A stretch of DNA of 58,718 nt from a virus (taxonomy: Duplodnaviria; Caudoviricetes), in IMG/VR virus record IMGVR_UViG_3300025653_000041, positions 1-58,718 of that record. The stretch is one strand, 5' to 3'. A program made the position numbers and the translations under genes. The notes under the pieces are model-generated. The model did not search any database and was not told the origin of the DNA. It saw nothing but the letters and a program-made list of their open reading frames with translations. This document shows, in pieces, positions 639 through 47,857 of this stretch (position 1 is the stretch's first letter; each line of letters starts with the position of its first letter).

Positions 639-2895
639 GTCAAAATCCCCTGATGCTTTTGAAAGGTTTAAAGAGGACCGTAGTAAAGTATATAAAGCAA
701 ACAAAAATAAAGTTGTAGAACATTTACAAAAAAGAGGATTACGTAAAGAAGCTATAGCTGCTATGTTAGCTAATATAGATGTTGAAACAGGTGGTTCTTT
801 TGACTTTACCCAAAAACAAACAGTATCTGGTCGTGCTGGCGATCCTGAAACAGTAAAAGGTGGGGGTGTAGGATTATTTCAATTTGATGATTATCAAAAA
901 GGTGTAGGTAATGAATCTTGGTATAAAGAATACTTAGAAGATTCTGGTAAAAAAGACAGTACCGAATCTCAAATAGACTACGTATTAGATGCTATATATG
1001 CAGAGAGTGATAAAGACGTAGGATGGAAATCTAAGTTAAAAATTGGAAAAGGTGATCTTGAAGTACTTAAACAATATTTAGATACTACCGAAAATCCTCG
1101 TGATATAGCAGATGCATTTGTTGACCGTTTTGAAAAAGCAGGGATACCACATTCTGATAAACGTAGAAATAGAACTGATAAGTATTTTAAAGAATTATCT
1201 TCTGAACAAAACATAAATCAAAATGAACCTATACAAGATGTAGGCAAAGATATTCCTATGAAAGACGAAAAGTTTCCTATGGAAAGAGTACAAGACATAC
1301 CAGAAGAAAAAAGTATGTATGAAACTATAAAGCCGTATGTCCCTATACTACGGCACTTTAATGAAGGTGGAGCAGTACCAATGCAAAAACAAATGGAAAT
1401 GTTTGAGGACGGTGGACTCAAAGATGAAGGTGGTTCAGTAGACCCTGTATCCGGCAATGATGTGCCACCCGGTTCTACACAAGAAGAAGTACGTGATGAC
1501 ATTCCAGCACAGCTAAGTGAAGGTGAGTTTGTATTCCCTGCTGATGTAGTGCGCTTTATTGGTCTTAACAATCTTATGCAGATGCGACAGCAAGCTAAGA
1601 TGGGGTTGAAACAAATGGAAGAGATGGGTCAAATGGGTAATAGCGAAGAAGCTACTATGCCAGATGATTTGCCGTTTGACATTAATGACCTTGACATGGA
1701 AGATGAGTTGGAGTATAATGTTGGTGGTTTTGTTCCCGGCACATTAGAGCAGCAGCAATATGGTATTAGTGGTATGCAAAAAGCTGATGCACCAACAACG
1801 GGCGTAGCAGCCGTACCACAACAAGCTGCATCAAGTCAGTATGTACAACCTATACAAGCTGCAGTGCCTACTGCTCCTGTGTACAAACCTGCAGAAGTTC
1901 CTACCTTTAAAGGCTTTGTAGGAGAGAATGTTCCCGGCGTGGATTTTGAATATGTAGAATATAAGAATGAAGCAGGTAATATTATTAAACTACGTAAAAG
2001 TAAAACAACAGGTGACTTACTAGACCCTGTACCAGAAGGCTATACATTTGTAGACCCAGAGGCTACTAAGGTAGAAGAAGCAACTGTAGCACCTACAACA
2101 CCGCAAACTACCAGTGTACGTGAAGAACAGACAGGTGGGGAAGACCGTGACTCTTATGGTCCTACTGATGAAGAAATATATGGTCCGGGTGGAGGACGTT
2201 TAAGTGTAGCTGGTGAAAAATATGGTGTATCTTTTGGTAATATGGGTGGTTTACCGGGTCCTGCGGGTGCTGTTCAGGGTGTGTTTGGATTAGCAACAGG
2301 CAAGGCACTACCGTCAGGTGCTACAGTTACTTTTCAAAATGCTGACGGTAAATTTACTCTTAAAGGAAGTGAATATAATGCTCTTAAAAATACTATTGCG
2401 GGTGCAGATGGTGGTGTAAATTCACCAGAAGTAAAAACTATGTTTGATGATTTGAAAAAATCTGCACAAGCAAGAAAAGAAACAGAACAAAAAATAAAAG
2501 AAGAAAAAGAAAGACGGGATAAAGATAAAAGAACCAAAGAACAACAACGTCAAGATGCTATTGCAGAACAAGTGGAAAAGGCACAAATAAAAACTGACAT
2601 TAAACAAGCCCAAGCAAAAGCAAGAGCAGAAATGAAAGCAAAAGAAGATGCTGCCGCTACTGCCGCAAGAATATCAAGAGAACAATCTGAAATAGCTAGT
2701 GGGCAGTATCAAGATTCTGGTGGTAATGATACTACTGCTCAACAAGCCTCAGATGATTATACAGCAAGTGCAGTTTCTGAAGCAGTAAGCACAGGAGATT
2801 ATAGTAGAGGTTTTAATGAAGGTGGCCTAGCTTCTAAACCAAAACCTAAAGTTAAGAAGAAAATGAAGCGTGGTGGATTAGCTTCTAAAAAATAA
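625..2895 (+). CDS. putative internal virion protein with N-terminal phage tail lysozyme-like domain
   Basis: N-term GLRKEAIAAMLANIDVETG...GVGLFQF...FVDRFEKAG resembles Phage_lysozyme2; followed by DDIPAQLSEGEFV motif; lies between portal and scaffold. Confidence 0.65.
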   Translation: MELPKSKSPDAFERFKEDRSKVYKANKNKVVEHLQKRGLRKEAIAAMLANIDVETGGSFDFTQKQTVSGRAGDPETVKGGGVGLFQFDDYQKGVGNESWYKEYLEDSGKKDSTESQIDYVLDAIYAESDKDVGWKSKLKIGKGDLEVLKQYLDTTENPRDIADAFVDRFEKAGIPHSDKRRNRTDKYFKELSSEQNINQNEPIQDVGKDIPMKDEKFPMERVQDIPEEKSMYETIKPYVPILRHFNEGGAVPMQKQMEMFEDGGLKDEGGSVDPVSGNDVPPGSTQEEVRDDIPAQLSEGEFVFPADVVRFIGLNNLMQMRQQAKMGLKQMEEMGQMGNSEEATMPDDLPFDINDLDMEDELEYNVGGFVPGTLEQQQYGISGMQKADAPTTGVAAVPQQAASSQYVQPIQAAVPTAPVYKPAEVPTFKGFVGENVPGVDFEYVEYKNEAGNIIKLRKSKTTGDLLDPVPEGYTFVDPEATKVEEATVAPTTPQTTSVREEQTGGEDRDSYGPTDEEIYGPGGGRLSVAGEKYGVSFGNMGGLPGPAGAVQGVFGLATGKALPSGATVTFQNADGKFTLKGSEYNALKNTIAGADGGVNSPEVKTMFDDLKKSAQARKETEQKIKEEKERRDKDKRTKEQQRQDAIAEQVEKAQIKTDIKQAQAKARAEMKAKEDAAATAARISREQSEIASGQYQDSGGNDTTAQQASDDYTASAVSEAVSTGDYSRGFNEGGLASKPKPKVKKKMKRGGLASKK

Positions 2896-2967
2896 TCCAC
2901 AATTCGTTGGCTACTCACTCCCCATGCCCGACAGTGTGGCTACGGTGGCCCCAACAAGGAGAATACA
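2896..2967 (+). promoter_or_regulatory. structured 5' leader of scaffold gene
   Basis: GTTGG/CCAAC closing stem, CCATGC/GTGTGG and GGCTAC/GTGGCC stems next to SD AAGGAG; U-G to C-G change in the second copy. Confidence 0.5.
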
Positions 2968-3834
2968 ATGAACGATACAATCATGGCAGAAGAAATGCAG
3001 TCAACACCAAAGGCAGCATTTGTAAATAAACCTTACACGCAAGAAGAACGAGTAAAGCGTGATGAGGAAGAACTAGAAGAACTGATGAAGGCACGTGACG
3101 GTGAAGAAGAAGTAGAGGAAGTAGAAGCTGAACCTACTAGCGCAGAAGAGAAAACATTTAAGAAGCGTTACTCTGACCTACGCCGACATCAGCAGAAACA
3201 AGCAGAAGAATTTAAGACTGAACTAGCTGCGCTTAAAAGTCAACTGGAAAGTGCTACTAAGAAAGAAATGAAGTTGCCTAAGTCCGATGAGGACATTGAA
3301 CAATGGGCTTCAGACTATCCTGATGTAGCAGCTATCGTTGAAACAATTGCAATGAAGAAGGCACGTGAGCAATCAACTGCTCTTGAAGAACGTCTTAAAG
3401 CAATTGATGAGTTACAAAACTCAGCTACGAAAGAAAAAGCAGAAGCAGCATTAATGCAGATGCATCCAGACTTTGATGACATTCGTGACAGTGATGACTT
3501 CCACGAGTGGGCAGAAGAACAACCTAAGTGGGTACAAGACGCACTGTACGAGAATGATAATGACGCACGTTCAGCAGCAAGAGCAATCGACCTCTACAAA
3601 TCAGATAGAGGCATTGGCAAAGAAACTAAGAGCAAGAGCAATAAGAGTGCAGCAGAGGCGGTTTCGACAAAGAATAAAAGAAGCAAGCCGCAAAGCGATG
3701 AAGCGTCTACATACCTTAAAGAGTCAGATGTAGACAAAATGTCTACACAAGAGTATGAGAAACACGCAGATGAAATCATGGATGCTATCCGTAGTGGTAA
3801 GTTTATCTATGATTTATCTGGCTCTGCACGATAA
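2968..3834 (+). CDS. capsid scaffolding protein
   Basis: Acidic coiled coil, FKKRYSDLRRH and HPDF motifs, C-terminal IMDAIRSGK; directly upstream of MCP. Confidence 0.8.
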   Translation: MNDTIMAEEMQSTPKAAFVNKPYTQEERVKRDEEELEELMKARDGEEEVEEVEAEPTSAEEKTFKKRYSDLRRHQQKQAEEFKTELAALKSQLESATKKEMKLPKSDEDIEQWASDYPDVAAIVETIAMKKAREQSTALEERLKAIDELQNSATKEKAEAALMQMHPDFDDIRDSDDFHEWAEEQPKWVQDALYENDNDARSAARAIDLYKSDRGIGKETKSKSNKSAAEAVSTKNKRSKPQSDEASTYLKESDVDKMSTQEYEKHADEIMDAIRSGKFIYDLSGSAR

Positions 3835-3841
3835 AAAAGAG

Positions 3842-3869
3842 TTGACAAGTACTTATTTATAAGTATAAC
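3842..3869 (+). promoter_or_regulatory. sigma70-type promoter for major capsid gene
   Basis: TTGACA-16-TATAAC, retained in the second copy. Confidence 0.65.
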
Positions 3870-3889
3870 TATAGTCATGTATGATGTAA

Positions 3890-4075
3890 ACGGGTTAGCT
3901 ACTTGTTTACATTGTCAATCCGCAAACGACAAAAATCTTAAAGATTACCTGATTAGCATGGCCTATTGAGTACATTGGTTGCAACCCTTGTATAAGATAC
4001 ACCCTACGTTAGACAGCCTCTGCAAAGAATTGTACTGTTTGCATCTGTACAATCCAAAACAATAGGAGATGGATT
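3890..4075 (+). ncRNA. putative structured RNA in the 5' UTR of the major capsid gene
   Basis: Several hairpins; changes between the two copies are compensatory or wobble-compatible in stems, or fall in loops. Confidence 0.6.
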
Positions 4076-5131
4076 ATGGCTTTCCCAAGAGCAGCGGGTT
4101 ACAACAACTTACCTAATGGTAATTTTAGCCCGGTAATTTACTCCAAACAGGTGCAGCTTGCATTCCGCAAGGCCGCTGTTTGTGACGCAATTACGAATAA
4201 CGACTACTTTGGTGAAATCGCAAACTTTGGTGATTCAGTTAAAATCATTAAAGAACCCGAAATCACTGTTAAGGCATACGAACGTGGTACTACAATCACG
4301 CCGCAAGACCTTGACGATGAAGACTTCACACTGACCGTTGACAAAGCAAACTACTTTGCATTCAAAGTTGACGACATTGAAGAAGCACATTCGCACGTAA
4401 ACTTTGAGTCTCTCTCAAGCAACCGTGCAGCATACCGCCTAGCCGACCAGTTTGACCAAGATGTTCTTGGCTACCTGTCAGGCTTTAAGCAGTCTGCAAT
4501 CAGTGGTACACCTGACACTGTTAACAACGTAGTTAACGGTACTAAGTCAGTTACAACTGCTGGTTCTGACGAACTGCTGGCAAGCATGAAGCTGAATGCA
4601 TCCGACTTCAACGCAGGTAATGCTGCTAACTGTGTCGGTCTGAAGCCTCGCGCATCAGAAGCTGTTCCTACAACTGCTGGTGTAGCTAACCCACTTACCG
4701 TGATTGCACGTATGGCACGTCAACTTGACCTGCAAAACGTAGACTCTCAGGGACGTTGGTTGGTTGTTGACCCAGTGTTTGTTGAACTGCTGAAAGACGA
4801 AGACTCACGTCTGTTTGATTCAGACTTTGGTGGTTCTGGTCTGCAGAATGGTTTGATTCTGAATAACCTGCATGGCTTTAAAGTCCATGTTTCTAACAAC
4901 CTACCTAAAGTTGGTACTGGTCCTTCTACTACTGGTGGAACCAATGCTAATAACTTTGGTGTGATTGTTGGTGGTCATTCATCAGCCGTTGCTACTGCTG
5001 ACCAAATCAACAAGACTGAGACTTACCGCGACCCGGACAGCTTCGCTGATATTGTCCGTGGTATGCATCTGTATGGCCGCAAGATTCTTCGTCCTGAAGC
5101 ACTTGTTAACGCCAAATACTGCTTGGTATAA
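4076..5131 (+). CDS. major capsid protein
   Basis: FSPVIYSKQVQLAF, FAFKVDDIE, C-terminal DIVRGMHLYGRKILRPEA typical of podovirus HK97-fold MCPs. Confidence 0.92.
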   Translation: MAFPRAAGYNNLPNGNFSPVIYSKQVQLAFRKAAVCDAITNNDYFGEIANFGDSVKIIKEPEITVKAYERGTTITPQDLDDEDFTLTVDKANYFAFKVDDIEEAHSHVNFESLSSNRAAYRLADQFDQDVLGYLSGFKQSAISGTPDTVNNVVNGTKSVTTAGSDELLASMKLNASDFNAGNAANCVGLKPRASEAVPTTAGVANPLTVIARMARQLDLQNVDSQGRWLVVDPVFVELLKDEDSRLFDSDFGGSGLQNGLILNNLHGFKVHVSNNLPKVGTGPSTTGGTNANNFGVIVGGHSSAVATADQINKTETYRDPDSFADIVRGMHLYGRKILRPEALVNAKYCLV

Positions 5132-5143
5132 GGAGAATAGATT

Positions 5144-5623
5144 ATGGCACTAGGTGATAACACTCTCCAAGCCGCACGTGGCAACTCGCAGCGTGGGCGT
5201 AATCCATACATGGTTCAGACCACATTTGACTTTGCAACAGCACTGTCTGACAAAGGTGGCGCACTTGCCGCTGGCGATGTCATTCCAGTAATTGCTGTTA
5301 AAAAAGGCATGATGGTGATGAATGCAGGTATTGAAGTTGATACTGCCTCTGACGGTTCTACTCTTACTGTAGACCTTGGCATGATTGCAGCTGAAGATTT
5401 CGTTGATGGTTTTGACGGAACTTCTGCAGCAGGTGTTGTAGCACAGAACCCAGCAGCCTATTCTCCACGGATGGCTGTTGCTGATGACAACATCGACCTC
5501 AAACTTGTTACCCTGTCAGGTGGCGCAGTTACTACGGGTAAACTCCGTATCTGGGCTGTCATCATGGATTGCAATGACGAAGGCGATTTGACTGCTCAAG
5601 AAGTAGCACGTGACTTTGCTTAA
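5144..5623 (+). CDS. putative capsid decoration/minor capsid protein
   Basis: Beta-rich 159-aa ORF between MCP and terminator. Confidence 0.55.
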   Translation: MALGDNTLQAARGNSQRGRNPYMVQTTFDFATALSDKGGALAAGDVIPVIAVKKGMMVMNAGIEVDTASDGSTLTVDLGMIAAEDFVDGFDGTSAAGVVAQNPAAYSPRMAVADDNIDLKLVTLSGGAVTTGKLRIWAVIMDCNDEGDLTAQEVARDFA

Positions 5624-5636
5624 ATAACATAGTATT

Positions 5637-5670
5637 GGGGCAGGGCAACTTGCCCCTTTACCTTTATTTT
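5637..5670 (+). terminator. Rho-independent terminator after capsid genes
   Basis: GGGGCAGG-GCAA-CTTGCCCC hairpin followed by a T-rich tract. Confidence 0.8.
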
Positions 5671-5686
5671 ATTATAAGGATGCACA

Positions 5687-6403
5687 ATGGCATACACTTA
5701 CCTAGACATTACTAATGAAGTCATTGCACGTATGAATGAAGTTGCGCTTACGTCAGCTAACTTTGGTTCTGCCCGTGGCTTTCAGGTACAGTGTAAGAAT
5801 GCAGTCAATGATGCTATCAACTATGTCAACCAGCGAGAGTTTGGTTGGCCTTTTACACATTCAACACAGACACAAACATTAGTAGCTGGGCAAACACGCT
5901 ACACTATTCCTGCTGATGCACAGTCCGTAGACTACGATACATTTAGAATTAGCAAAGACGATACTCTAGGTGTGTCAGGAATTACTTTACGTATTATAGA
6001 TTACAAAGAATATACACAAAAATATATTGACCAAGAAACTACATCAGATGTAGGCGCAGTTCCTATCTATGTATTTCGCACACCAGATAATAACTATGGC
6101 ATGTATCCATACCCAGATAAAGCCTATGAACTAAAATATGAATACTTCCAAAAACCTACAGCTTTGTCAGCGCATGGTGATGTACCTACCATACCAGAGC
6201 AGTTCAGACAAGTGATTGTAGATGGTGCTACTGCATACGCATATCAGTATCGTGGTGAAGCACAACAGTATGGAATTAACTTTGCACGTTTTGAGGACGG
6301 TATTAAACAAATGCAAACTATTCTTCTCAATCGTGCTGACTACGTTAGGTCTACATATATTCCCTACTCACAAAGGTATGGTGCTGGCGCGGGTGGATTT
6401 TAG
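5687..6403 (+). CDS. tail adaptor (tail tubular protein A-like)
   Basis: TYLDITNEVIARMNE N-terminus, WPF, YPYPDKAY and PTIPEQF motifs; position after capsid genes. Confidence 0.75.
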   Translation: MAYTYLDITNEVIARMNEVALTSANFGSARGFQVQCKNAVNDAINYVNQREFGWPFTHSTQTQTLVAGQTRYTIPADAQSVDYDTFRISKDDTLGVSGITLRIIDYKEYTQKYIDQETTSDVGAVPIYVFRTPDNNYGMYPYPDKAYELKYEYFQKPTALSAHGDVPTIPEQFRQVIVDGATAYAYQYRGEAQQYGINFARFEDGIKQMQTILLNRADYVRSTYIPYSQRYGAGAGGF

Positions 6404-6412
6404 AGGTTTTAA

Positions 6413-7921
6413 ATGGCAGATGAATCTGGCCTTAATCCCTTTGTGTTTGCATGTCAAGGTGGTCTAGTTCTCGACCAATCAACCTTTGCAATGCAGCCGG
6501 GGATGGCACTTGAACTAGAAAACTTTGAACCTGCCACTACTGGTGGGTACAGACGTATCTCAGGTTATAACAAGTGGAACTCTAACATTGTTCCGCAAGA
6601 CCAATCTGCCAGTGAGTCTGTACTTATGTCGGCATACTTTAAGGGTAGTATCCTAGCCGCACGTGGACGTAAGATACATAAGGCTGCAACAGGTAGCGGT
6701 TCTTGGACTGAGATAGACTCAGGTAGAACAAGTGCAGGACGCTATACATTCTTTAGATACAATCTAGCTGGCACAGATTTTATTGTATGGGCTGATGGTG
6801 CTAATCGTGCATCTAAATATGACAATACTACTGTAACAGATATTAACGCTACTGGCGCACCTACAGACCCTAAGTTTGTAACCGGATTCAAGAACGCACT
6901 ATTCTTTGCTGGTATGTCTTCTACTCCACAAGAGTTAGTATTTACTGCACCATACACCGATACGGATTTTAATACGGCTAACGGTGCTGGTTCTATAAAA
7001 GTAGATAGTGATATTACAGGATTGTTTCCGTTTCGTGATGCACTGTATATCTTCTGTGAAGAACGTATATTTAAGCTGGTAGGTAACACTGTAGCTGACT
7101 TTGTACTGCAACCTGTAACAAGAGAGATTGGTTGCCTCAACGGATTTACCATCCAAGAATTTGCAGGTGATATTATTTTCTTAGGTCCAGATGGACTGCG
7201 TACTGTTGCTGGTACAGAGAGAATTGGTGACGTAGAACTTGGTACAATCAGTCGCGCAGTGCAAGAACGCTTTGAAGGACTGTCTGACGTAGATGAGTTT
7301 GACAGTGTAATTATCCCAGATAAGACACAGTATCGCATCTTCTTTAGTAACAATGCTACGCCGCGTTCTACCACTACTGGTGTTATCTGTGTACGTAAAG
7401 GTGATAGCTACGAGTTTGCAGATATTAAAGGTATCAGGCCAAGTAGCACAGACAATATTGTAGTAGCAGGTGACACTATTGTAGTACACGGAGACTTTGA
7501 TGGTTACGTGTATCGGCAAGAACAAGGCGATGACTTTGACGGTAACGTAGTAACAGGCAAGTATCGTTCTCCTGATTTGACTATGGGCGATGCAGGACTA
7601 CGTAAGACCTTTGAACGTGTTATCATTAACTATGCACCAGAAGCGGCAGTTAACGCTGACTTGTTTGTACGATACGACTATGAGTCACCAAATGTGGCAA
7701 GACCAGCAGCGTACCCATTTGATACAGCTACATCGGTAGCTATCTATGGTACATCTACATACGGCGTTGCAACATACGGTGGACAATCTAACCCATTGGT
7801 AAGACAACCGATTGAAGGCAGTGGATTTGCTGTAGCACTGCGGGTTAACGATAGAGGCACATCAGCACCATATTCACTTAAAGGATTTCAGCTAGAGTTC
7901 CAAGCTGATGCAAGGAGATAA
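6413..7921 (+). CDS. tail nozzle (tail tubular protein B-like)
   Basis: GGL...LENFEP...GGYRR N-terminus, beta-propeller-like composition, follows adaptor. Confidence 0.7.
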   Translation: MADESGLNPFVFACQGGLVLDQSTFAMQPGMALELENFEPATTGGYRRISGYNKWNSNIVPQDQSASESVLMSAYFKGSILAARGRKIHKAATGSGSWTEIDSGRTSAGRYTFFRYNLAGTDFIVWADGANRASKYDNTTVTDINATGAPTDPKFVTGFKNALFFAGMSSTPQELVFTAPYTDTDFNTANGAGSIKVDSDITGLFPFRDALYIFCEERIFKLVGNTVADFVLQPVTREIGCLNGFTIQEFAGDIIFLGPDGLRTVAGTERIGDVELGTISRAVQERFEGLSDVDEFDSVIIPDKTQYRIFFSNNATPRSTTTGVICVRKGDSYEFADIKGIRPSSTDNIVVAGDTIVVHGDFDGYVYRQEQGDDFDGNVVTGKYRSPDLTMGDAGLRKTFERVIINYAPEAAVNADLFVRYDYESPNVARPAAYPFDTATSVAIYGTSTYGVATYGGQSNPLVRQPIEGSGFAVALRVNDRGTSAPYSLKGFQLEFQADARR

Positions 7922-7924
7922 TTA

Positions 7925-9727: not shown

Positions 9728-9730
9728 CAC

Positions 9731-9759: not shown

Positions 9760-9785
9760 TATACTTATCTTAATTAGGAGATGAA

Positions 9786-16832: not shown

Positions 16833-18800
16833 ATGGCGATGTTCAAAGCATTTAAACCTGAAGCAATGAATAAGATTGCAGGGGCAATGGGATATACTGG
16901 TAACATGGATTCATTCCAGCAGTATATTGAACAAGACCCAGCACGTAAGGCACGTATGGATGGCTTTGTAAAAGCTGCACAGACTATGGCTAAAGGTGGG
17001 ATGGTTAAGAAGATGCAGACTGGTGGTGTTGTACGCGCACAGCCACCCGGCGGTGAAGTACCTCCCGGTGGTAGTCCGTTTACAGCACAACCCACACCTG
17101 CTGCTCCTACAACGCCTATAACAAACACTAATCAATCTGTTATAGGTGAAGTTGCAACACAGCGTTTATTTTCTCCAGCCTTACCTACTGGCAGTGTAAC
17201 ACAAGCTGCTATGACACCGACAGGTCCGGGTCAAGCTATTGCACAGGGTACTGGTCAACTTACAGGTGCAGTTGCAGTGCCTACAGCAATGGCACAAACA
17301 GCTACAACTACCCCACAACAAGAGTCACAAGCAAATGTAATGGAAGCCGCTACAGCCGCACCAGCAGTTGATGCAGCTATGAATGCTACACAGGCAGCAC
17401 AGGCTACCGTAGACCCCCGCGCACAGGTCACAGCGGCCCAGCAAACAGCTACTAGCGTAGGCAATCTATCTGCTGCACAGGGTAATGCCACACTTATTGA
17501 CAATCCTGTACAACGTAACATACAAGCAGGTGAACTTATTACTGGTGCTGCTGATGCACAGACTGCTGCTACCTTTACTGAACAGGTACAAGCGGCTACA
17601 GCTACACCATCTACACAGGCTACCGTACAGGGTCAGCTTGCTTCTCTAACAGCTAACTTTGATGCCGCTAACCCACCAGCATGGGCAGCAGGTGCTATGC
17701 GTAATGCTACAGCACAGATGGCTGCACGTGGACTAGGTGCTTCATCCCTAGCTGGTCAGGCTATTGTACAAGCTACACTAGAGTCTGCACTACCTATCGC
17801 ACAGGCTGACGCTGCTACAGTAGCACAGTTTGAGGCACAAAACCTATCTAACAGACAACAACGTGCTATGCTTTCTGCACAGCAACGTGCGCAGTTTATC
17901 GGTCAGGAGTTTGACCAAGCATTTCAATCACGTGTACAGAATGCCTCTAAGATTAGTGACATAGCTAATATGAACTTTACTGCAGAGCAGCAGGTACAAC
18001 TTGAGAACTCTCGTGCTGCTAATACAATGAACCTTAACAATCTATCTAACTCACAGGCAATGGTCATGGCAGAAGCATCTGCACTGGCACAGATGGATGC
18101 ATCTAACCTCAACAATCGCCAACAAGCAGCAGTAAATAATGCACAGACATTCCTGCAGACTGATATGGCTAACTTGTCTAATCAGCAACAGACAGATTTA
18201 TTTAAGGCACAGCAGCGTACACAGTCTATGTTTACTGACCAAGCCGCTGCTAATGCGGCACGTCAGTTCAATGCATCTAGCCAAAATCAAGTTGACCAGT
18301 TCTTTGCTAATCTAGCACAGCAGACAGCACAGTTTAACTCGACACAACAAAATGCACAGTCACAATTTAATGCAGGTCAAGCTAATACAGTTAATCGTTT
18401 TAATGCTGAGATGAATAACCAGCGTGACCAGTTCAATGCACAGAACCAGATTGTGATTGGACAATCTAACGCCCAATGGCGTAGGCAGATTGCTACAGCA
18501 GACACTGCGGCAGTTAACCGTGCTAACGAAATCAATGCTGCAGCTATACTAGACGTTAGTAAAACTGCATATGATAATTTGTGGCAGTACTATGCAGATA
18601 CTATGGAGTGGGCGTGGACATCAGGTGAAAATGATAAAGATAGATTGACACAACTATCCACTGCAGAACTTAATGCAAAAACCAATATGGATATGCAGAA
18701 GTTAAAAACAGACGCAGAAGAAAGTGGTGCCATTGGTGGTTTCTTTACAGATGTATTGACAAGTCCGTTAACTGGTAGTATACTAGGTAAATTTTTCTAA
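16833..18800 (+). CDS. internal virion (ejection) protein, Q/A/N-rich
   Basis: Long low-complexity helical protein with QFNA repeats; position after tail genes. Confidence 0.65.
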   Translation: MAMFKAFKPEAMNKIAGAMGYTGNMDSFQQYIEQDPARKARMDGFVKAAQTMAKGGMVKKMQTGGVVRAQPPGGEVPPGGSPFTAQPTPAAPTTPITNTNQSVIGEVATQRLFSPALPTGSVTQAAMTPTGPGQAIAQGTGQLTGAVAVPTAMAQTATTTPQQESQANVMEAATAAPAVDAAMNATQAAQATVDPRAQVTAAQQTATSVGNLSAAQGNATLIDNPVQRNIQAGELITGAADAQTAATFTEQVQAATATPSTQATVQGQLASLTANFDAANPPAWAAGAMRNATAQMAARGLGASSLAGQAIVQATLESALPIAQADAATVAQFEAQNLSNRQQRAMLSAQQRAQFIGQEFDQAFQSRVQNASKISDIANMNFTAEQQVQLENSRAANTMNLNNLSNSQAMVMAEASALAQMDASNLNNRQQAAVNNAQTFLQTDMANLSNQQQTDLFKAQQRTQSMFTDQAAANAARQFNASSQNQVDQFFANLAQQTAQFNSTQQNAQSQFNAGQANTVNRFNAEMNNQRDQFNAQNQIVIGQSNAQWRRQIATADTAAVNRANEINAAAILDVSKTAYDNLWQYYADTMEWAWTSGENDKDRLTQLSTAELNAKTNMDMQKLKTDAEESGAIGGFFTDVLTSPLTGSILGKFF

Positions 18801-39717: not shown

Positions 39718-39718
39718 A

Positions 39719-40126: not shown

Positions 40127-40148
40127 AATAATATCTCCTTTGTGTTGG

Positions 40149-40698: not shown

Positions 40699-40810
40699 TG
40701 TGCTTATCTTTCTTTCGATTGTATTTGGTTTTGTCAGGCACTACTTGTGAACGTCTGCGATTATTCTGTAGGAGTGCCTTTGCTACAGGATTGATTGTCT
40801 TAATACGCAT
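40655..40810 (-). CDS. small basic protein (NPVAK...KYNRK motif)
   Basis: Start after GGAG SD; MRIKTINPVAKALL...KTKYNRKKDKH. Confidence 0.6.
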   Translation of the reverse strand: MRIKTINPVAKALLQNNRRRSQVVPDKTKYNRKKDKHNANQARQHEEPKDN

Positions 40811-40857
40811 TGTCAATTCTCCATTAGTCCGCTGTCGGACTAGTCTAGTATATCTAA

Positions 40858-40932
40858 GTAACAATATATACTTCACTAAAGTATCAGTATATATGTTACA
40901 TAAGATATACATAAGGTTTTTCAGCTTGTCAA
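40858..40932 (-). promoter_or_regulatory. promoter plus hairpin with ACTTTAGTGAA loop (copy A)
   Basis: TTGACA-17-TATATC followed by a 14-bp stem with a bulge. Confidence 0.6.
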
Positions 40933-41579: not shown

Positions 41580-41851
41580 TACACATTCTCCATGTTTGGA
41601 ACATCAATTTCAATTACTTTCCATGCCGCCCAGACTTCGCCTGTCTCAGCATGTACTACAGCACAAGTGCCATGAGGCCAACGCCAATTTATGATTGCAT
41701 TGGATTCCCATTTCCAGCCCATAGCTTCGGCACATTTTTCTTCGGCAGATTCAGATGCAATTTCCTGTGCCTCAAACACATCATTACATACCACTGGCAT
41801 AGGTTGCCAATCCCACGTCATAGTCCATTCCATTACAATAAACTGTTTCAT
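41579..41851 (-). CDS. hypothetical early protein
   Basis: Start MKQFIV after GGAG SD. Confidence 0.55.
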   Translation of the reverse strand: MKQFIVMEWTMTWDWQPMPVVCNDVFEAQEIASESAEEKCAEAMGWKWESNAIINWRWPHGTCAVVHAETGEVWAAWKVIEIDVPNMENV

Positions 41852-41864
41852 TACACCCACTCCA

Positions 41865-42101
41865 TTAAAATCTGGTAGAATCTTGGTCACTATATAGTGG
41901 GTCAGGGTAAGTATTACCCTTGTCACTATATACAATAAGGTCATTGTCAAAGTCAATATCGCCATATGACCTATAGTCATGGTAAGAGTGGATAAAGTCA
42001 GGTTTACCAAACACTCTCACCGCCGCGCTGTACTGCGCATCTGTACGGAATCCAACAAAATGCACAGCGGCATAGTAAGTATCAAAACATCTAGCAGTCA
42101 T
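41865..42101 (-). CDS. hypothetical early protein
   Basis: VHFVGFR...AVRVFGKPDFIH; flanked by a 19-bp direct repeat. Confidence 0.6.
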   Translation of the reverse strand: MTARCFDTYYAAVHFVGFRTDAQYSAAVRVFGKPDFIHSYHDYRSYGDIDFDNDLIVYSDKGNTYPDPLYSDQDSTRF

Positions 42102-42370
42102 TACACCCACTCCATTTCATAAGCATCTTCAAGCCAACGCATAGCTGTAGCTATATCAGGACAGCCACTGTCCATGCAAGAATTAATTGCATCATCTTCT
42201 AGCTTGCGCTGATGACGTAGTTCCTCATCAAGCATACGTTGAAGCGTAGCAACCTCAGACTGTAGGTCTGTGATAGAACACAGGTCATAGTTCATGCCAC
42301 GTGGCCTTACACCATGTACATCCTTGAACAAATCCCACAAGGTCTGTAGTAATTCATCTTTGTAAGTCAT
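42101..42370 (-). CDS. hypothetical early protein
   Basis: WDLFKDVHGVRPR motif; GGAG SD. Confidence 0.6.
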   Translation of the reverse strand: MTYKDELLQTLWDLFKDVHGVRPRGMNYDLCSITDLQSEVATLQRMLDEELRHQRKLEDDAINSCMDSGCPDIATAMRWLEDAYEMEWV

Positions 42371-42421
42371 CTAAAACTCCAAGTTGTTAGTCCGCTGTCG
42401 GACTAGTTAAGTGTTATATAA

Positions 42422-42486
42422 GTAATACATACTTCACTAAAGTATCAGTATGTATTACGTTATACACTATACCAAATTCTTGTCAA
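42422..42486 (-). promoter_or_regulatory. promoter plus hairpin with ACTTTAGTGAA loop (copy B)
   Basis: TTGACA-16-TATAAC followed by a perfect 12-bp stem. Confidence 0.65.
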
Positions 42487-42724
42487 TCATCCTTTGCTTC
42501 AAGTCAAACAATGCTTGCATTTGTGCTTGCCGCTTTGCATCTGCCGCAATCTTGGCATCATACTCAGCTTGCCAAGCATCAGCTTGACCCGTCACATAAA
42601 CATGGAAATCAGGCCGTGTCTCAGGCTCATAGCTACGGCTATAGGCTTGAGTATCCATGCTACGCCAGCTTGAGCCTAACGGCTTGTGCTTACCCATATC
42701 TACGATTGCACCACGTTTAGCCAT
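42467..42724 (-). CDS. hypothetical early protein
   Basis: Start MAKRG after GAGG. Confidence 0.55.
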   Translation of the reverse strand: MAKRGAIVDMGKHKPLGSSWRSMDTQAYSRSYEPETRPDFHVYVTGQADAWQAEYDAKIAADAKRQAQMQALFDLKQRMIDKNLV

Positions 42725-42953
42725 TGTTTCTATACCTCTCAATAATTTCATCTTCGATGCGGAACTGTCTAATCCGCAAAGCACTCTCATAAAAACACAA
42801 ACCCATTGCCCAAGTCATAAAGCTAATGCAAAGCATTATTCCTGCAGACATGGCATCATGTAGCACAAGGATAATGGGTGATGATGCAAACGCCATGAAC
42901 GCTATACACCACCAGAACAGGCAACAAATGCTATGGAAATATTCTCTAATCAT
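42717..42953 (-). CDS. small 2-TM membrane protein
   Basis: Two hydrophobic segments; GGAG SD. Confidence 0.55.
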   Translation of the reverse strand: MIREYFHSICCLFWWCIAFMAFASSPIILVLHDAMSAGIMLCISFMTWAMGLCFYESALRIRQFRIEDEIIERYRNNG

Positions 42954-43015
42954 AATTTAATACTCCGTATTAAGCTAAGTCCGCTGTCGGACTAAGAAAA
43001 GGTAGACTGTAGGGA

Positions 43016-43648
43016 TTACCCTACAGCCTCAAAAGGTACAACTTCGTTGTCTTGTTTAATCATACCAATAGCATTTGCTATTGCAATCTCAAAATCAGCT
43101 ATGCTGATATTATTCATTTCTACTTGCAGTAGAACTTCAAGTGCCAAATCTTCAGCAGTCTTTTCAGACTGTACAGAGGACTTGTCCTCAATCTGCTTAA
43201 CCTCATCTTGAGGTTCAACAGGTGTTTCAACCTCTGGTTCAACAATCTCTTCAACCTTTGGGTTGACAATCTTATCGACTGCTTTCAGCAAATCTTTCAT
43301 GCTACAAATCGAAGATTTCTTACCAAGCAAATCGTTTTCAACGATTACAGAGAAGTTCTCAAAGAACTTCATGGCTTCACTACGGCGTTGCTTTGCAACG
43401 GTATGAAGATTGGCATCTTTCAGCAAAGCTGAGTCAGTACGATTACCACCGGACTCTGTCCGTAGCTTTACAAGTATTTCTCCAAGGGAGAACCAAAAGC
43501 CACCAAACTCACAGAGTTTCTTGAAGCGACTGACATCACCTTTGGTGATTGACTTATCCCATTGGGATAATACTAAGCCTTTGTCTTGGAGAGTGTTATT
43601 AGCTTCAGCTAATTGAACAGAGAACGATTTTGAAGTTGATTTAGCCAT
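43016..43648 (-). CDS. first early gene, hypothetical
   Basis: 210 aa, SD AAGGA, first ORF of the minus-strand arm. Confidence 0.7.
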   Translation of the reverse strand: MAKSTSKSFSVQLAEANNTLQDKGLVLSQWDKSITKGDVSRFKKLCEFGGFWFSLGEILVKLRTESGGNRTDSALLKDANLHTVAKQRRSEAMKFFENFSVIVENDLLGKKSSICSMKDLLKAVDKIVNPKVEEIVEPEVETPVEPQDEVKQIEDKSSVQSEKTAEDLALEVLLQVEMNNISIADFEIAIANAIGMIKQDNEVVPFEAVG

Positions 43649-43681
43649 GATATTTTCCTTTTATCTATCTTTAGGTTTTAT

Positions 43682-43724
43682 AGGGATATATCCCCTTTCA
43701 CTAAAGTTCAAGGGGTATATTCCT
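43682..43724 (-). promoter_or_regulatory. hairpin with ACTTTAGTGAA loop (copy C)
   Basis: Same 11-nt core as copies A and B but with a different stem sequence. Confidence 0.6.
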
Positions 43725-44320
43725 TAAAACCGTAAGAAGATAGTTAAAGTTTGGAGTTTGCCTCGCGCCATCGTCTGCGCTTGCCGTTTCGCTTGTGATT
43801 GCAGGAAACTACGTTTCCGAAATTGGTGCGCGAAACTCGTGACGGGTAGCGAGGTTTGGCGGTGTAGTGTGACATATATGCAACAGTAAACTGTTGACAG
43901 CAAGTCCGACAGCGGACTAAGGACAGCATAGCTGAGTAGTAGAAGCATGAGCATTACAACTTGTTGTAAATCTGTGAAGTCAGCCATTTACAATCATACT
44001 TCGTATGGCAACTGATACCATAACAGTTGTTTACAACTGGCTGAGAACATCATATCTACTACATCTTGATGTAGACGGATGCTTGGTCACTACATCTGGC
44101 TCTAACCATGCGCTACGCAACGCATTATGCGGCGCATCACCCGCGCAGTTAGGTGGCCGGGCAGGAGCCATGCGGGGGTATAGCGTATATATACTTGTAT
44201 ATCTACACAGATTAGGTAAATTCAGTGTTAACCACAGAGGCAACTGTCATTACATATATGCACAAGTATTGTGCAACTGCCTAAAAAATAGGCAACTATA
44301 GATGCATGAAAATAAAAGAC
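43725..44320. other. non-coding divergence region, probable genome termini/DTR
   Basis: Lies between oppositely oriented arms; nested inverted repeats; GC-rich then AT-alternating tract at 44130-44210. Confidence 0.5.
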
Positions 44321-44349
44321 TTGACAACCCCCCTGAAATCTGGTATAAT
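44321..44349 (+). promoter_or_regulatory. consensus sigma70 promoter for the late arm
   Basis: TTGACA-17-TATAAT with extended -10 TG. Confidence 0.85.
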
Positions 44350-44352
44350 TAG

Positions 44353-44500
44353 CACTATAACTAAGACTCACTTAAGTGACTTACTTAAATGTTATTTACT
44401 TCTAATTAAAATACACTATAACTAAGTCACTTAAATGTAGCATTGTTAGCTATCCCTAAATTTTCTTTGCTAATACAGTTTAACTGTAACACTTAAGTGT
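44353..44500. repeat. AT-rich short-repeat array (CACTATAACTAAG x2, ACTTAA x4)
   Basis: Direct repeats plus palindromes TCACTTAAGTGA and ACACTTAAGTGT. Confidence 0.75.
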
Positions 44501-44542
44501 AATGCTATGATTGTCTTATCTGTACAAAGAAAGTTCTTGACA

Positions 44543-44755
44543 ATGGCGAAGAAATCTGTAAAACTATACACAGACAATGTACTTGAAGCATTCTACCATG
44601 CTATCCGTACTAATACATTAGACAAACTCCACATACCCCATAGTGATGTTTTCTACGTGCGACAGGCAGTGGAAGCACACTATGGTCGTTCCTTTACTCT
44701 GAAACACGTAGAAGATGCTATGAGAGCAGAAGGGTGGACAGAGAGGAATGAGTGA
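44543..44755 (+). CDS. hypothetical protein
   Basis: MAKKSVKLY...HIPHSDVFYVR; start uncertain. Confidence 0.55.
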   Translation: MAKKSVKLYTDNVLEAFYHAIRTNTLDKLHIPHSDVFYVRQAVEAHYGRSFTLKHVEDAMRAEGWTERNE

Positions 44756-44955
44756 TGTTTTATGCAGCTATATTAGCCTGTACAATAATAAACCCTGATG
44801 CTTGTGTTGAGGCAGAGGATACTCGTGGTCCATATAAGACCAGAGCAGAGTGTGTCCTACGTGTTGAAGAGATGATAGCAGATACAATACCTCTGTTACC
44901 TCGTATACCTCACAGCTTCAAGTTTAAATGCGCACCTAAAGGAACACCTACGTAA
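44752..44955 (+). CDS. small Cys-containing exported protein
   Basis: Signal-like N-terminus, four Cys, GPY motif. Confidence 0.5.
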   Translation: MMFYAAILACTIINPDACVEAEDTRGPYKTRAECVLRVEEMIADTIPLLPRIPHSFKFKCAPKGTPT

Positions 44956-45248
44956 TGGCTATACCTGAAAGAGTAAAGAATAAAATGAAAGAAGAAGGGT
45001 TGTCTGGCGTTAACAAGCCTAAGAAGACACCTAACCATCCTAAGAAGTCACATTGTGTGATGGCAAAGGAAGGTGACACATACAAGTTTATTCGCTTTGG
45101 ACAGCAAGGCGTATCTGGTGCTGGGAAGAATCCTAAGTCTGCTAAAGACAAAGCACGTAAGAAGTCCTACTATGCACGTCACAATGCACAGGGCAAGCCG
45201 ACCAGCAAGCTGTCAGCGAAGTACTGGTCACATAAAGTGAAATGGTAA
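44955..45248 (+). CDS. basic conserved phage protein
   Basis: NKPKKTPNHPKKSH...IRFGQQG...YYARH...KYWSHKVKW. Confidence 0.7.
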   Translation: MAIPERVKNKMKEEGLSGVNKPKKTPNHPKKSHCVMAKEGDTYKFIRFGQQGVSGAGKNPKSAKDKARKKSYYARHNAQGKPTSKLSAKYWSHKVKW

Positions 45249-45263
45249 TAGGAGAATCAACAG

Positions 45264-46157
45264 ATGTCATTCGCTAAATTTATAGGAGAAATTGCAGAGA
45301 ACGGTATTACTACCGCACGTGCAATGTATGGTAGATTAGATAAAGGTGCTACGGATGCACAAAAGAAACGTATTGATGCTGCTAAAGCAAAATTTAAAGA
45401 GCGTCCTAAATCTCGTAGTAAAACACAATCAGAAGGTATGGCTCAAGACCCAATTGCAGGTGATAAAGTAAAAGGTGCGGTAGACGTACAAAAAGGCAAG
45501 GCTGGTAAGGTAACACAGTCACCGGAGCCGGGTTTCTTACAGCAGCAGCGTAGTGAAGGCTCACGAGCAAGGGCAGAAAGAAAAGTAGAAGCATCTCAAA
45601 AGAAACGTACAGGCAAAACTAAAGCTGAACGCGAAAGCGCAGCCAGACGTGAAGAGGAAATGGAAGCAAAAGATGTTCGTGATACTATGAGTGCTAGGGC
45701 TAAAGCATCTGCTACTGCGCGAGGAAAGAAAAGAAAAGAGCCTGATGATTTTGCCACTGCAATTAATCGCAAGACGGGTGAAATTAATGAGGCGGCGTTT
45801 AATCGCCTAACTAAAAATCAACAAGAGTCTCTTATGCGAGACATTCGTGCAAGATTTAGCACGACACGTGCGCGTGAGATTATGGCTCGTATTGATGAAA
45901 TGGAACCTACAAAAGCAGGTGAGTCAGGTGTTCGTAGACGTAGTGGTAGAGCTAGTGACCGTATTGGAGCAGCACCACGTTCAATGCAAGGACCAAATGC
46001 GAGGTCGCCAAAACCTAGTCCTAGTCGCCGTAAAAGTGGTGTAACTGGACGTGGTGGAGAATCCTTTAATAAGGGTGGTATGCCGCGTAAAGGAAGCATC
46101 GACTACCGTAAAGGTGGTATGGTAAAAGCAATACACAACAATAAAAGAGGTGGCTAA
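45264..46157 (+). CDS. K/R-rich hypothetical protein (possible capsid-internal DNA binder)
   Basis: Very basic; C-terminal FNKGG/YRKGG motifs. Confidence 0.6.
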   Translation: MSFAKFIGEIAENGITTARAMYGRLDKGATDAQKKRIDAAKAKFKERPKSRSKTQSEGMAQDPIAGDKVKGAVDVQKGKAGKVTQSPEPGFLQQQRSEGSRARAERKVEASQKKRTGKTKAERESAARREEEMEAKDVRDTMSARAKASATARGKKRKEPDDFATAINRKTGEINEAAFNRLTKNQQESLMRDIRARFSTTRAREIMARIDEMEPTKAGESGVRRRSGRASDRIGAAPRSMQGPNARSPKPSPSRRKSGVTGRGGESFNKGGMPRKGSIDYRKGGMVKAIHNNKRGG

Positions 46158-46159
46158 AT

Positions 46160-46537
46160 ATGTCTATGAAAGAAAAACCAACGCCAGCTTTGAAAGCTAT
46201 GCTAATGAAGAACAGTGGTGCTACTGCTACAGAAGTTCGTGCTGCTATTAAAGAACTTAAAAAGCGTGGAGAGGATACTCCTGCGCCTTCTATGGTTACA
46301 GGTGGCCGTAAACTTAATAAAGGTGGTTCAGTTAAAAAGGATGTTCCTGTACTAGCTATTAGTATTGGAATGGGTAAAATGAAAAAACCCAAAAAGAAAA
46401 CACAAATGGCCTATGGTGGTATGTCAGGTGGCAAGAAGCATATGTATGCAGCAGGTGGTATGGTTAAAGATAACCCCGGCCTAATAGCATTGAAGGCTGA
46501 AAGCCCAGAAGCGTACAAGAAAATCACTGGTAAGTAA
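46160..46537 (+). CDS. basic hypothetical protein with xxxGG motifs
   Basis: LNKGG, MAYGG, YAAGG. Confidence 0.6.
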   Translation: MSMKEKPTPALKAMLMKNSGATATEVRAAIKELKKRGEDTPAPSMVTGGRKLNKGGSVKKDVPVLAISIGMGKMKKPKKKTQMAYGGMSGGKKHMYAAGGMVKDNPGLIALKAESPEAYKKITGK

Positions 46538-47064
46538 TGCACCCTGTTGAACAGGACATACGTAAGTGGTCACATAACTTTCTTGAGATACCGAATGTAA
46601 AGTTAAATGGCCTACCACCCTGTCCATACGCTAAACAGGCATGGGCAGATAACAAAGTCACATTCAGTATCAACACAGGTATTGATGGGCTGTTAGAAGC
46701 TGTACGTGTATTTGATACACATGACTATGACATTGTGGTGTGGGCTAGTGAAGTACTGCCAGACATAAAGTACCTAGATGGCTTTTGTGATGGCATGAAT
46801 GAATTGATGTCAGTCGCTGGCATTGACTTGCACCTTATGGTGTTCCATCCAGACTATAACGCTGAACAAGCTGGTCTGGACTTTCTAATCGAAGATGACA
46901 TCGTAGATGAATCTTTGACATACTGCATGGTATTCGTGCAGAAGCTATCGCTGCTTGACGATGCAGCACTGAGTCTGGAAAAGAGTGGATACTACAAACA
47001 CTTTCCAGAAGATACATTTGAAAGCCTTGTGCTAGAAAGACGGAGATTACGTAATGAAGGGTAA
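46537..47064 (+). CDS. DUF1415-like protein
   Basis: GLPPCPYAK and MVFHPDY motifs. Confidence 0.55.
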   Translation: MHPVEQDIRKWSHNFLEIPNVKLNGLPPCPYAKQAWADNKVTFSINTGIDGLLEAVRVFDTHDYDIVVWASEVLPDIKYLDGFCDGMNELMSVAGIDLHLMVFHPDYNAEQAGLDFLIEDDIVDESLTYCMVFVQKLSLLDDAALSLEKSGYYKHFPEDTFESLVLERRRLRNEG

Positions 47065-47206
47065 AACTAAAATGGCATCAAAGAAGATGATGCGTGGTGG
47101 TGCAGCTACTAAGACAGCACCGAAGCGTATGCGTGGCGGTGGTATGATGAAAGCAGCATCAAAGAAGAAGATGATGCGCGGTGGCATGGCTAAGAAGAAG
47201 AAGTAA
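47054..47206 (+). CDS. 50-aa K/M/G-rich peptide (not in ORF track)
   Basis: MKGKTKMASKKMMRGG...MRGGG...MMRGGMAKKKK; GGAG SD; TAATG coupling. Confidence 0.7.
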   Translation: MKGKTKMASKKMMRGGAATKTAPKRMRGGGMMKAASKKKMMRGGMAKKKK

Positions 47207-47565
47207 TGCCAGTATTACAATCAGGTTCAAAGTTTCGTACTGAAGTTGTGCCGTTGTCTACAACGAACAAGACAACTGTGTACACTGTACCCGCAAACTT
47301 TTCTTCTCACTTAGGAAACTTTTTTGTGAGTAACAATCATACAGGTAACGTGACTTTGAGCCTACACCTTTTTCATGCAGACGATAACACAGAGTATGAC
47401 CTACTGACTGCCCATAATGTTGCAGGTGGTTCGTATGAGTCTATATTTACTAGAAACAATCAGCTATTTTTACATGCGGGTGATATTATAAAATGCACAG
47501 CAGGTACAGCAAGCAAGCTAGTTGTTACTACGTCATGCGAAGAATTTTTTGACCCAGCGAGATAG
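47206..47565 (+). CDS. small beta-sandwich virion protein
   Basis: TTVYTVP...LFLHAGDII; similar to 9786..10112. Confidence 0.55.
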   Translation: MPVLQSGSKFRTEVVPLSTTNKTTVYTVPANFSSHLGNFFVSNNHTGNVTLSLHLFHADDNTEYDLLTAHNVAGGSYESIFTRNNQLFLHAGDIIKCTAGTASKLVVTTSCEEFFDPAR

Positions 47566-47575
47566 GAGACAGGAG

Positions 47576-47857
47576 ATGGTACGTGTCACTAAAAAGCCAG
47601 CCGCTAAAAAGAAAGCCCCATCGGTTGCAGCGAAAAAGAAACCGACTAGAAAGGTTAGCCTTGCGAAAGGCGGTGCGCCACAGAGCAAATCGAGAGTTAA
47701 CGAAGCTGGCAATTATACTAAGCCCGGAATGAGGAAGCAACAATTCAATCGCATTAAAGCTGGCGGTAAAGGCGGCGCACCCGGTCAGTGGTCAGCGCGT
47801 AAAGCCCAGATGCTTGCGTCTGCTTACAAGAAAGCTGGTGGTGGGTATAAGTCGTGA
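47576..47857 (+). CDS. basic conserved phage protein
   Basis: NYTKPGMRK...GGKGGAPGQWSARKAQMLA..YK..GGGY. Confidence 0.65.
   Translation: MVRVTKKPAAKKKAPSVAAKKKPTRKVSLAKGGAPQSKSRVNEAGNYTKPGMRKQQFNRIKAGGKGGAPGQWSARKAQMLASAYKKAGGGYKS

Follow-up and report, generated by a model that had tools for sequence, protein, structure and literature searches.

The window analysed here is a 58,718-nt stretch of viral DNA (positions 1 to 58,718 of IMG/VR record IMGVR_UViG_3300025653_000041), the genome of an HMO-2011-type marine podophage with the same gene order as Puniceispirillum phage HMO-2011, to which positions 44000-58718 are 87.1% identical across 75% of their length. Our subject is a short protein motif, [FYML]xxGG, which recurs in several of its genes (Table 1). 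The initial annotation, made from the letters alone, listed 16 copies in six otherwise dissimilar proteins and proposed either a tag for docking cargo in the capsid or a Gly-Gly cleavage site. All 16 pentapeptides were found in the named frames, together with two further copies (YGPGG and MVTGG), and the six carriers show no detectable similarity to one another: the best pairwise BLASTP E-value within a six-sequence database was 0.095, and the short matches were the motif itself. The motif is real, enriched, conserved, portable and biased to C-termini and domain junctions, and it is present on cell-wall-active cargo encoded in structural modules.

Table 1. Motif carriers, the adjoining gp66-like gene and the duplicated ends of the window (aa, amino acids; copies by first or first and last nucleotide)
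Feature	Position	Strand	Description	Motif copies
gp49-like portal-adjacent modular protein	625..2895	+	756 aa: N-terminal PF18013 tail-lysozyme, conserved core, variable middle, Lys-rich C-terminal tail	FNEGG 1357-1371, FEDGG 1402-1416, YNVGG 1714-1728, YGPGG 2179-2193, FNEGG 2812-2826, MKRGG 2863-2877
gp25-like protein	16833..18800	+	655 aa: conserved 50-aa N-terminal domain, motif pair, then hypervariable Q/A/N-rich body	MAKGG 16986-17000, MQTGG 17013-17027
gp68-like basic protein	45264..46157	+	297 aa, net +35; diverged type B tail	C-terminal pair: FNKGG 46065-46079, YRKGG 46104-46118
gp67-like basic protein	46160..46537	+	125 aa, net +18	MVTGG 46292, LNKGG 46313, MAYGG 46406, YAAGG 46445
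gp66-like acidic protein	46537..47064	+	175 aa; start and stop codons overlap with the flanking motif genes	none
50-aa protein	47054..47206	+	net +19, 20% Met, 30% Lys; three motif units; type A tail MMRGGMAKKKK at end	MMRGG 47087, MRGGG 47129, MMRGG 47171
gp63-like basic protein	47522..47857	+	start ATG 47576 or TTG 47522; conserved C-terminal domain (phrog_17747)	LAKGG 47660-47674, preceding the conserved C-terminal domain
gp49-like protein, second copy (variant)	55862..57352	+	496 aa, without lysozyme domain	55898, 55916, 56210, 56663, 57254, 57269, 57320
End duplicate	1-628 = 55247-55874		94.9% identity	
End duplicate	1387-2366 = 55883-56855		83% identity	
End duplicate	2809-4259 = 57266-58718		92.5% identity	

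The basic carriers have net charges of +18 to +35 and pI values of 10.2-12, and a charge-hydropathy plot places every small carrier on its disordered side. Searches with the small carriers returned no Pfam family at E≤0.01, no NCBIfam family, and only PHROGs families of unknown function. The gp67-like protein gave chance matches alone in a PDB sequence search (E about 1) and only viral clusters without names in the ESM Atlas, and the gp25-like protein had no PDB match. Curated family models, that for the KGG repeat of stress proteins (Pfam PF10685) included, had no match among the small carriers. The HMO-2011 record holds, between gp66 and gp65 (4503-4655 of the retrieved locus, L021), an unannotated 50-aa open reading frame (ORF) that is 94% identical to the one in the window, so this three-unit repeat protein is missing from the deposited annotation.

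Approximately 4.26 kb is present twice, at both window ends (1-4259 and 55247-58718), as variants of 83-95% identity. The duplicated ends span the portal C-terminus, the gp49-like gene, the scaffold gene and the start of the coat gene, and differ by an indel that carries the lysozyme domain (629-1386); they probably arose when the assembly of a circular or concatemeric genome was closed over two strains, the unit genome being about 54.5 kb. This duplication bears on the earlier statement that the motif survives between alleles as FDDGG, YNIGG, YNQGG and MKKGG: the four pentapeptides do occur in 55862..57352, but the supposed alleles are the second gp49-like copy, present because the window start recurs at the window end.

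A lack of enrichment over composition-matched shuffles was one of the outcomes that the initial annotation named as refuting it; the within-protein shuffles were exceeded. Across 88 mechanically called ORFs, with both end copies counted, [FYML]xxGG occurs 36 times versus 17.7±4.2 in shuffles, and none of 2000 shuffles reached 36. After deduplication (85 proteins, 17,903 aa, duplicated end dropped) the count is 29 versus 16.3±4.0, a value reached by 7 of 3000 shuffles, and a refined form, [FYM]xxGG[MLAVFI], defined post hoc on the same data, occurs 16 times versus 3.4±1.9 and was matched by none of 3000. Shifted spacings were flat ([FYML]xGG, 18 versus 16.4; [FYML]xxxGG, 19 versus 16.2). The whole excess lies in the plus-strand operon (32 versus 14.0±3.7), while the minus strand, which encodes replication, shows 4 versus 4.0; for single proteins the counts include 6 copies versus 0.98 expected in 625..2895, 7 versus 1.1 in 55862..57352 and 3 versus 0.23 in 47054..47206. 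A Shine-Dalgarno-like GGAGG at the DNA level, arising from the codons of K-G-G, was ruled out as the cause, since the Gly codons of the motif are GGT in 38 of 50 cases rather than GGAGG; the signal therefore lies at the protein level.

It is the comparative data, as we judge these sequences, and not the window alone, that decide whether the motif is real. We fetched 66 IMG/VR loci with the gp67-like and gp49-like proteins and counted the motif on unique sequences. It is present in 20 of 20 gp49-like sequences (5-7 copies per protein), 28 of 28 gp67-like homologues (2.4 copies per 122 aa), 9 of 9 members of the 50-aa family (3.7 copies per 77 aa), 9 of 11 gp68-like and 11 of 19 gp63-like sequences, while other proteins carry almost none (copies per protein: portal 0.03, TerL 0.02, coat 0, scaffold 0). 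At least two copies are kept in 62 of 63 unique gp25-like N-termini; across 62 unique N-termini, M-A-x-G-G and the second G-G never vary, M, F and Y are the sole residues at the second hydrophobic position, and column entropy climbs to 2.4-3.7 bits right after the second copy. In the gp67-like protein, MAYGG and YAAGG make up a conserved core, M..GGMSGGK.HMY..GGMVKDNPGL. Orthologues thus keep the motif while the x-x positions and flanks vary, and 239 unique instances give the consensus (K-rich)-[MFY]-[ANM]-[KRAE]-G-G-[MLA]-[VA]-(K-rich). Among 505 GG sites of the carrier families, 246 have M, F, Y or L at position -3, versus a background of 17%. Alignments of the gp49-like and gp25-like families also bore out the placement of the motif at domain boundaries, where conserved parts meet variable ones.

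A second line of evidence comes from C-termini. In a set of 1216 unique ORFs, the motif lies at most 12 residues from the C-terminus in 58, compared with 28.5 expected. Two tail types were recognized. Type A, Φ-x-[KR]-GG-[LMA]-A-x-KKK-stop (Φ, a hydrophobic residue), is found on gp49-like variants and repeat proteins, as in MKRGGLASKK of gp49 and the end of the 50-aa protein. Type B, (Φ-x-KGG-x-V-K-x4-6)-D[YF]RKGG[ML]V[LI]S[ST]VDNRKKK-stop, is strictly conserved over 18 residues and runs 12 residues past the GG. Its DNA pattern was found in 96 stretches of IMG/VR and had no match in 596 Gb of prokaryote genomes. It ends 78 unique ORFs (69-388 aa) that belong to 36 unrelated N-terminal families, two of the 78 carrying LysM, and HMO-2011-type neighbors were present at 94 of 95 type B loci. 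The gap between the TerS-like helix-turn-helix (HTH) gene and TerL (homologues of window 51245-51616 up to TerL; loci L069-L163) is a hotspot of small, variable genes whose products have a type B tail, with 51 such ORFs; in the window the same gap holds instead a 55-aa zinc-ribbon ORF (51609..51776) and a gp53-like HTH protein (about 51760..52158). TerL was considered as the partner of the tail, given these 51 ORFs just upstream of it, and was set aside because the type B tail is also found at the gp68 position.

The gp49-like family shows the same behavior at internal junctions. Its gene adjoins the portal gene, and its variants, surveyed in both window copies and loci L042-L068, are modular: variable N-terminal domains are joined to a conserved core through Φ-x-x-GG-x3-M-x-KQMEMF[DE][DE]GGL. 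Short forms begin exactly at M..KQMEMF, and each long variant has Φ-x-x-GG before that point. The swappable N-terminal modules comprise the PF18013 lysozyme, a PF00959-like segment, sub-threshold matches to ART-PolyVal and LPD23 and, in two variants, an HExxH segment resembling DUF6782 (E 2.5e-3); C-termini are either a type A Lys-rich tail or, in some variants, a Hint-like module. The PF18013 match lies above its curated cut-off. The core of approximately 90 aa has more than 6500 homologues and no match in Pfam or PDB, and no MuF domain was found in gp49-like proteins.

Outside HMO-2011-type phages, a two-unit MAKGG pattern (units 5-14 residues apart) matched at least 120 IMG/VR stretches. 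The counts that follow are among the matches listed. An in-frame small basic ORF was present at 117 of 119 new loci (L164-L282), yielding 113 unique ORFs of 41-448 aa (median 99) with 2-11 units, and 79% of 524 unit spacings were 9-14 residues, with a mode of 12. At 56 of the 117 repeat loci no protein is shared with the window, and the 120 large ORFs at those loci include 23 Mu-gpT-like and 22 Phage_capsid_4 coat matches as well as terminases and SU10-type adaptors; the window coat protein has no Pfam match. Small basic proteins built of the repeat unit, K.KG/Y-[MY]AKGG-[AM].K, are frequent in marine viral contigs that have no relation to the window, and the arrays vary from one close relative to another. 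In most cases the repeat gene is found amid other small basic genes (gp63-like, 44955-like, DUF6321), two to four genes upstream of SU10-type adaptor genes, a type of adaptor found in both phage groups. A neighboring basic family has a match (E 4e-6) to phrog_220, "minor head protein and DNA pilot". Two other small basic families of the cassette (window 44955-45248; loci L201 and L211), the 44955-like one (phrog_7595) and the DUF6321-like one, are likewise found as the C-terminal part of PHROG families of far greater size, one of them bearing that same name, a hint that the cassette as a whole is built from detachable tail modules. No name or Pfam family was attached to the MAKGG-repeat proteins among 191 matches, and no curated family was found in the libraries searched. 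A phmmer search of one such protein against 1.84 billion representatives gave 102 matches headed by unrelated giant repetitive proteins, a tblastn search against cultured phages gave none, probably owing to its low-complexity filter, and literature searches on DUF5872, DUF6321, DUF6496 and DUF5754 turned up mentions in two papers only, both on unrelated subjects.

Within the basic cluster, the acidic gp66-like protein stands apart. It is conserved at 72-100%, far above its hypervariable basic neighbors, with invariant C29, C84, H99, H104 and C130, and is a candidate partner or enzyme. Its PPCPYAKQAW segment resembles glutaredoxin (CPYx). As a recognizable protease it was rejected for now: the glutaredoxin-like match is weak (E 0.51), the match to DUF6875 has an E-value of 0.24, and neighboring clusters carry DUF1415 (18% of members) and DUF6875 (14%). 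No prohead or other maturation protease family was found among 70 window proteins, where Peptidase_S74 was the only peptidase among the 25 families listed of the 27 matched; a set of 20 proteins yielded none either, and no Pfam family of adenain-type cysteine proteases turned up in these searches.

As to expression, two perfect TTGACA-17-TATAAT promoter-like sites lie on the plus strand. One (44321-44349) is upstream of the basic gene cluster, at a divergent junction, and the other (56187-56215) is within the gp49-like variant, upstream of the scaffold gene. Promoter-like sites overall are no more frequent than shuffles predict (29 versus 30.1), and no terminator-like site was seen on the plus strand before 52959. 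RNA contigs from four libraries, drawn from three studies, align to parts of 44000-58718, the basic cluster among them, although DNA carry-over is possible and the contigs cannot rank expression. Between the basic cluster and the lysis and terminase genes sits an auxiliary metabolic gene (48084-49175) for a Ring_hydroxyl_A (PF00848) protein, annotated in HMO-2011 as methanesulfonate monooxygenase. Elsewhere in HMO-2011, gp44 has been placed as tubular tail protein B (PMC4819975).

Taken together, invariant key positions, free x-x residues, junction or terminal location, transfer between proteins and variable copy number are the behavior of a short linear motif. We read Φ-x-x-G-G-Φ-[V/A], with Φ mostly M, F or Y, as a portable linear module in disordered, mostly Lys-rich segments that would mark proteins of the capsid interior, a tentative reading that we find plausible though short of probable. 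The marked set would comprise the small basic proteins (the 50-aa, gp67-, gp68- and gp63-like), the gp49-like protein and the gp25-like protein in the HMO-2011-type head and packaging operon, with gp25-like at the ejection-protein end of the tail module and gp49-like bringing lysozyme or other effector domains. Because carriers include cell-wall-active proteins (PF18013 lysozyme and LysM) and polyvalent-protein-like architectures, and because their genes lie in head and neck modules, we argue that these proteins would travel in the capsid and leave with the DNA; most likely they would be internal capsid proteins. The hydrophobic-GlyGly-hydrophobic clip would then make a specific contact, either with a putative receptor (scaffold, portal/neck or coat) or homotypically, while flanks rich in Lys would anchor the proteins to packaged DNA, and the cargo would be loaded, retained and finally ejected with the genome. 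We infer virion location, as well as any binding and any partner of the motif proteins.

Several points weigh against the capsid-interior module. Phages whose coat belongs to a different family (Phage_capsid_4 or Mu gpT-like) encode repeat proteins too, and since the coat families differ, a coat-specific receptor is unlikely. Of the docking tag proposed initially, the behavior of a portable signal is supported (conservation in orthologues, placement at junctions and C-termini, and 36 N-terminal families), while coat-specific docking is unlikely; the scaffold, the portal, an adaptor (SU10-type in both groups) or homotypic contacts are left as candidates by these comparisons. In the window, the genes for coat, scaffold, portal and adaptor lie at 4076..5131, 2968..3834, 53607..55742 and 5687..6403, respectively. 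The ART-PolyVal, LPD23, Hint and DUF6782 matches on gp49 variants all fall below curated Pfam cut-offs (26.9 versus 31.2 bits for ART-PolyVal). Lying just downstream of the perfect sigma-70-like promoter at 44321-44349, the basic cluster could be an early one whose products work inside the cell, on the DNA of host or phage. The literature searched, passages of PMC9038755 and PMC6918029 included, yielded neither a virion proteome nor a structure for any HMO-2011-type phage, and the passages of PMC9038755 that speak of motifs do not mention this one. Finally, GG alone is also enriched (135 versus 100), which explains part of the excess, and an unbiased scan of three-letter gapped patterns ranks M..GG only seventh (11 versus 3.3, p 6.5e-4); the signal of the window alone is modest, and for that reason the case rests on conservation in relatives.

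The last two points, with a pattern picked after the data had been seen, are also what a chance or compositional artefact of Gly-, Met- and Lys-rich proteins would predict, an account that we regard as highly improbable: shuffling within each protein preserves composition and did not once reach the refined count, the shifted-spacing controls are flat, and the motif is conserved independently in hundreds of related sequences. Another account appeals to charge. Lys-rich units of approximately 12 residues might bind DNA, in the capsid or in the cell, as histone H1 or protamine tails do, with Φ-x-x-GG-Φ serving as a turn or wedge and no protein receptor involved. The extreme basicity of the carriers, the 2-11 units with their modal spacing of 12, the occurrence across phages with different coat families, as expected were DNA the partner, and the cassettes shared with other small basic proteins (DUF6321-like and gp63-like) all fit such DNA-condensing repeats, an explanation that we hold to be unlikely. 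Motif and charge nevertheless come apart in both directions. The motif, with the same preferences at +1 and +2, occurs in acidic, Lys-free contexts of gp49 (FEDGGLKDEGG and DELEYNVGGFVPG; compare FEDGGL and YNVGGF) as well as in basic ones, and is in that sense independent of charge, whereas two equally basic window proteins, 44955..45248 (+19) and 49880..50119 (+20), lack it. Hence the core does not simply accompany a lysine tract that binds DNA, and the strict 18-residue type B tail exceeds the needs of charge alone. A low-complexity grammar without a dedicated receptor would treat the motif either as aromatic or Met stickers beside Gly-Gly that confer weak homotypic cohesion or condensate formation, or as a tolerated, readily duplicated unit that repeat expansion and recombination have spread. 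A likeness may be seen in the kinked aromatic-Gly segments of low-complexity domains in eukaryotes, and the multivalent, variable copy number, the disordered composition, the arrays that differ among close relatives and the general enrichment of GG all fit. We nonetheless think this improbable, given the strict placement of single or double copies in non-repetitive contexts (62 gp25-like and 28 gp67-like sequences) and the type B tail strictly kept on 36 unrelated N-termini.

Processing at Gly-Gly is the remaining possibility, and one that the initial annotation had offered as an alternative. A protease cutting after GG would free gp49- or gp25-like domains and chop the repeats into cationic peptides of approximately 12 residues, much as the adenovirus protease acts on core precursors. 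The junction placement would suit such a role, before M..KQMEMF in long gp49 variants and at the end of the conserved N-domain in gp25, as would the two gp49 variants with an HExxH segment. The gp49 variants also resemble polyvalent proteins, some of which are processed proteolytically before packaging, P1 DdrB being an example given in the polyvalent-protein passages of PMC5512222. Against it, no maturation protease family was found among 70 window proteins and no protease match for the gp66-like protein, the only conserved Cys/His protein nearby. Moreover, the adenain-type spacing Φ-x-GG is not enriched, type B conservation reaches 12 residues beyond the GG, and cleavage at terminal copies would free only 5-6 residues (MKRGG|LASKK). 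We judge Gly-Gly processing to be improbable.

Were the motif a loading or retention tag, it would explain how abundant marine phages (HMO-2011-type phages are among the most abundant marine viruses) package variable injected proteins, would allow viral dark matter to be searched by a sequence rule for effectors and anti-defence proteins that are injected, would give a role to the large class of unnamed small basic MAKGG-repeat proteins, and would provide a way to put foreign cargo into these capsids. If it proved to be only a DNA-binding repeat, it would still represent an undescribed kind of phage DNA-associated protein. The capsid-interior reading is directly testable because cultured members exist, namely HMO-2011 (host IMCC1322) and the CRP roseophages, among which the gp49 core is also found.

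Among the closest known systems is the capsid targeting sequence (CTS) of T4, which section 2.6 of PMC9026906 describes as a conserved peptide on the internal proteins IPI-III, Alt and gp21, and as sufficient to load foreign cargo into the head. Both are short conserved peptides carried by diverse, fast-evolving, often basic proteins with hypervariable cargo (PMC9026906, same section), and here the type B tail, on 78 unique ORFs of 36 N-terminal families, is just such a peptide. The T4 signal as described there, however, is a single N-terminal propeptide of 10 residues that is cut by the gp21 protease and targets the scaffold core, whereas our motif is internal or C-terminal, often multi-copy and of another consensus. 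No N-terminal, CTS-like placement was seen among the copies examined, 58 ORFs instead having a copy near the C-terminus, and no prohead protease family for CTS-type removal was found among 70 window proteins. Encapsulin cargo-loading peptides are short, Gly-containing, hydrophobic and basic, and dock unrelated cargo by its C-terminus inside an HK97-fold shell. The type A and type B tails share the C-terminal placement on unrelated cargo, but many other motif copies are internal or near N-terminal domains, the consensus is different, and repeat carriers occur with at least two different coat families.

The gp49-like protein itself, portal-adjacent and modular, with lysozyme, ART-PolyVal-like, LPD23-like, metallopeptidase-like and Hint-like modules on a conserved core, recalls the polyvalent, MuF and SPP1 gp7-type head proteins discussed by Iyer et al. 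2017 (PMC5512222), in whose passages on such proteins the ART-PolyVal, LPD23 and Hint families are viewed as capsid-packaged effectors and no recurrent Φ-x-x-GG junction motif is mentioned. It differs from them in that no MuF domain was found, that its core matches neither Pfam nor PDB, and that the Pfam matches of its variants other than PF18013 lie below the curated cut-offs. Gly-Gly also figures in the terminal sorting and processing signals of GlyGly-CTERM/rhombosortase systems and of double-glycine leaders. Unlike GlyGly-CTERM, the motif is not followed by a transmembrane helix, with only about 6 hydrophobic residues after the GG in type B and 2-3 in type A; unlike double-glycine leaders, it does not stand in a leader at the N-terminus. 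C39 peptidases and rhombosortases are absent, and the type B tail has no match in prokaryote genomes. The adenovirus protease site, (M/I/L)XGG-X, found in basic core-protein precursors, is similar in setting a hydrophobic residue and Gly-Gly within very basic, DNA-associated proteins and polyprotein-like arrays, but the hydrophobic residue of our motif stands one position further from the GG, and it is this spacing (29 versus 16.3) rather than that of adenain (18 versus 16.4) that is enriched. The boldest extension, which we consider unlikely, would make Φ-x-x-GG-Φ-V with Lys-rich flanks a universal multi-copy cargo tag of HMO-2011-type and several other marine podophage lineages, one that loads a fast-evolving arsenal of lysozymes, LysM proteins, ART-like and peptidase-like polyvalent effectors and polycationic peptides, might double as a Gly-Gly processing site, and would be a phage counterpart of both encapsulin loading and adenovirus core-protein maturation.

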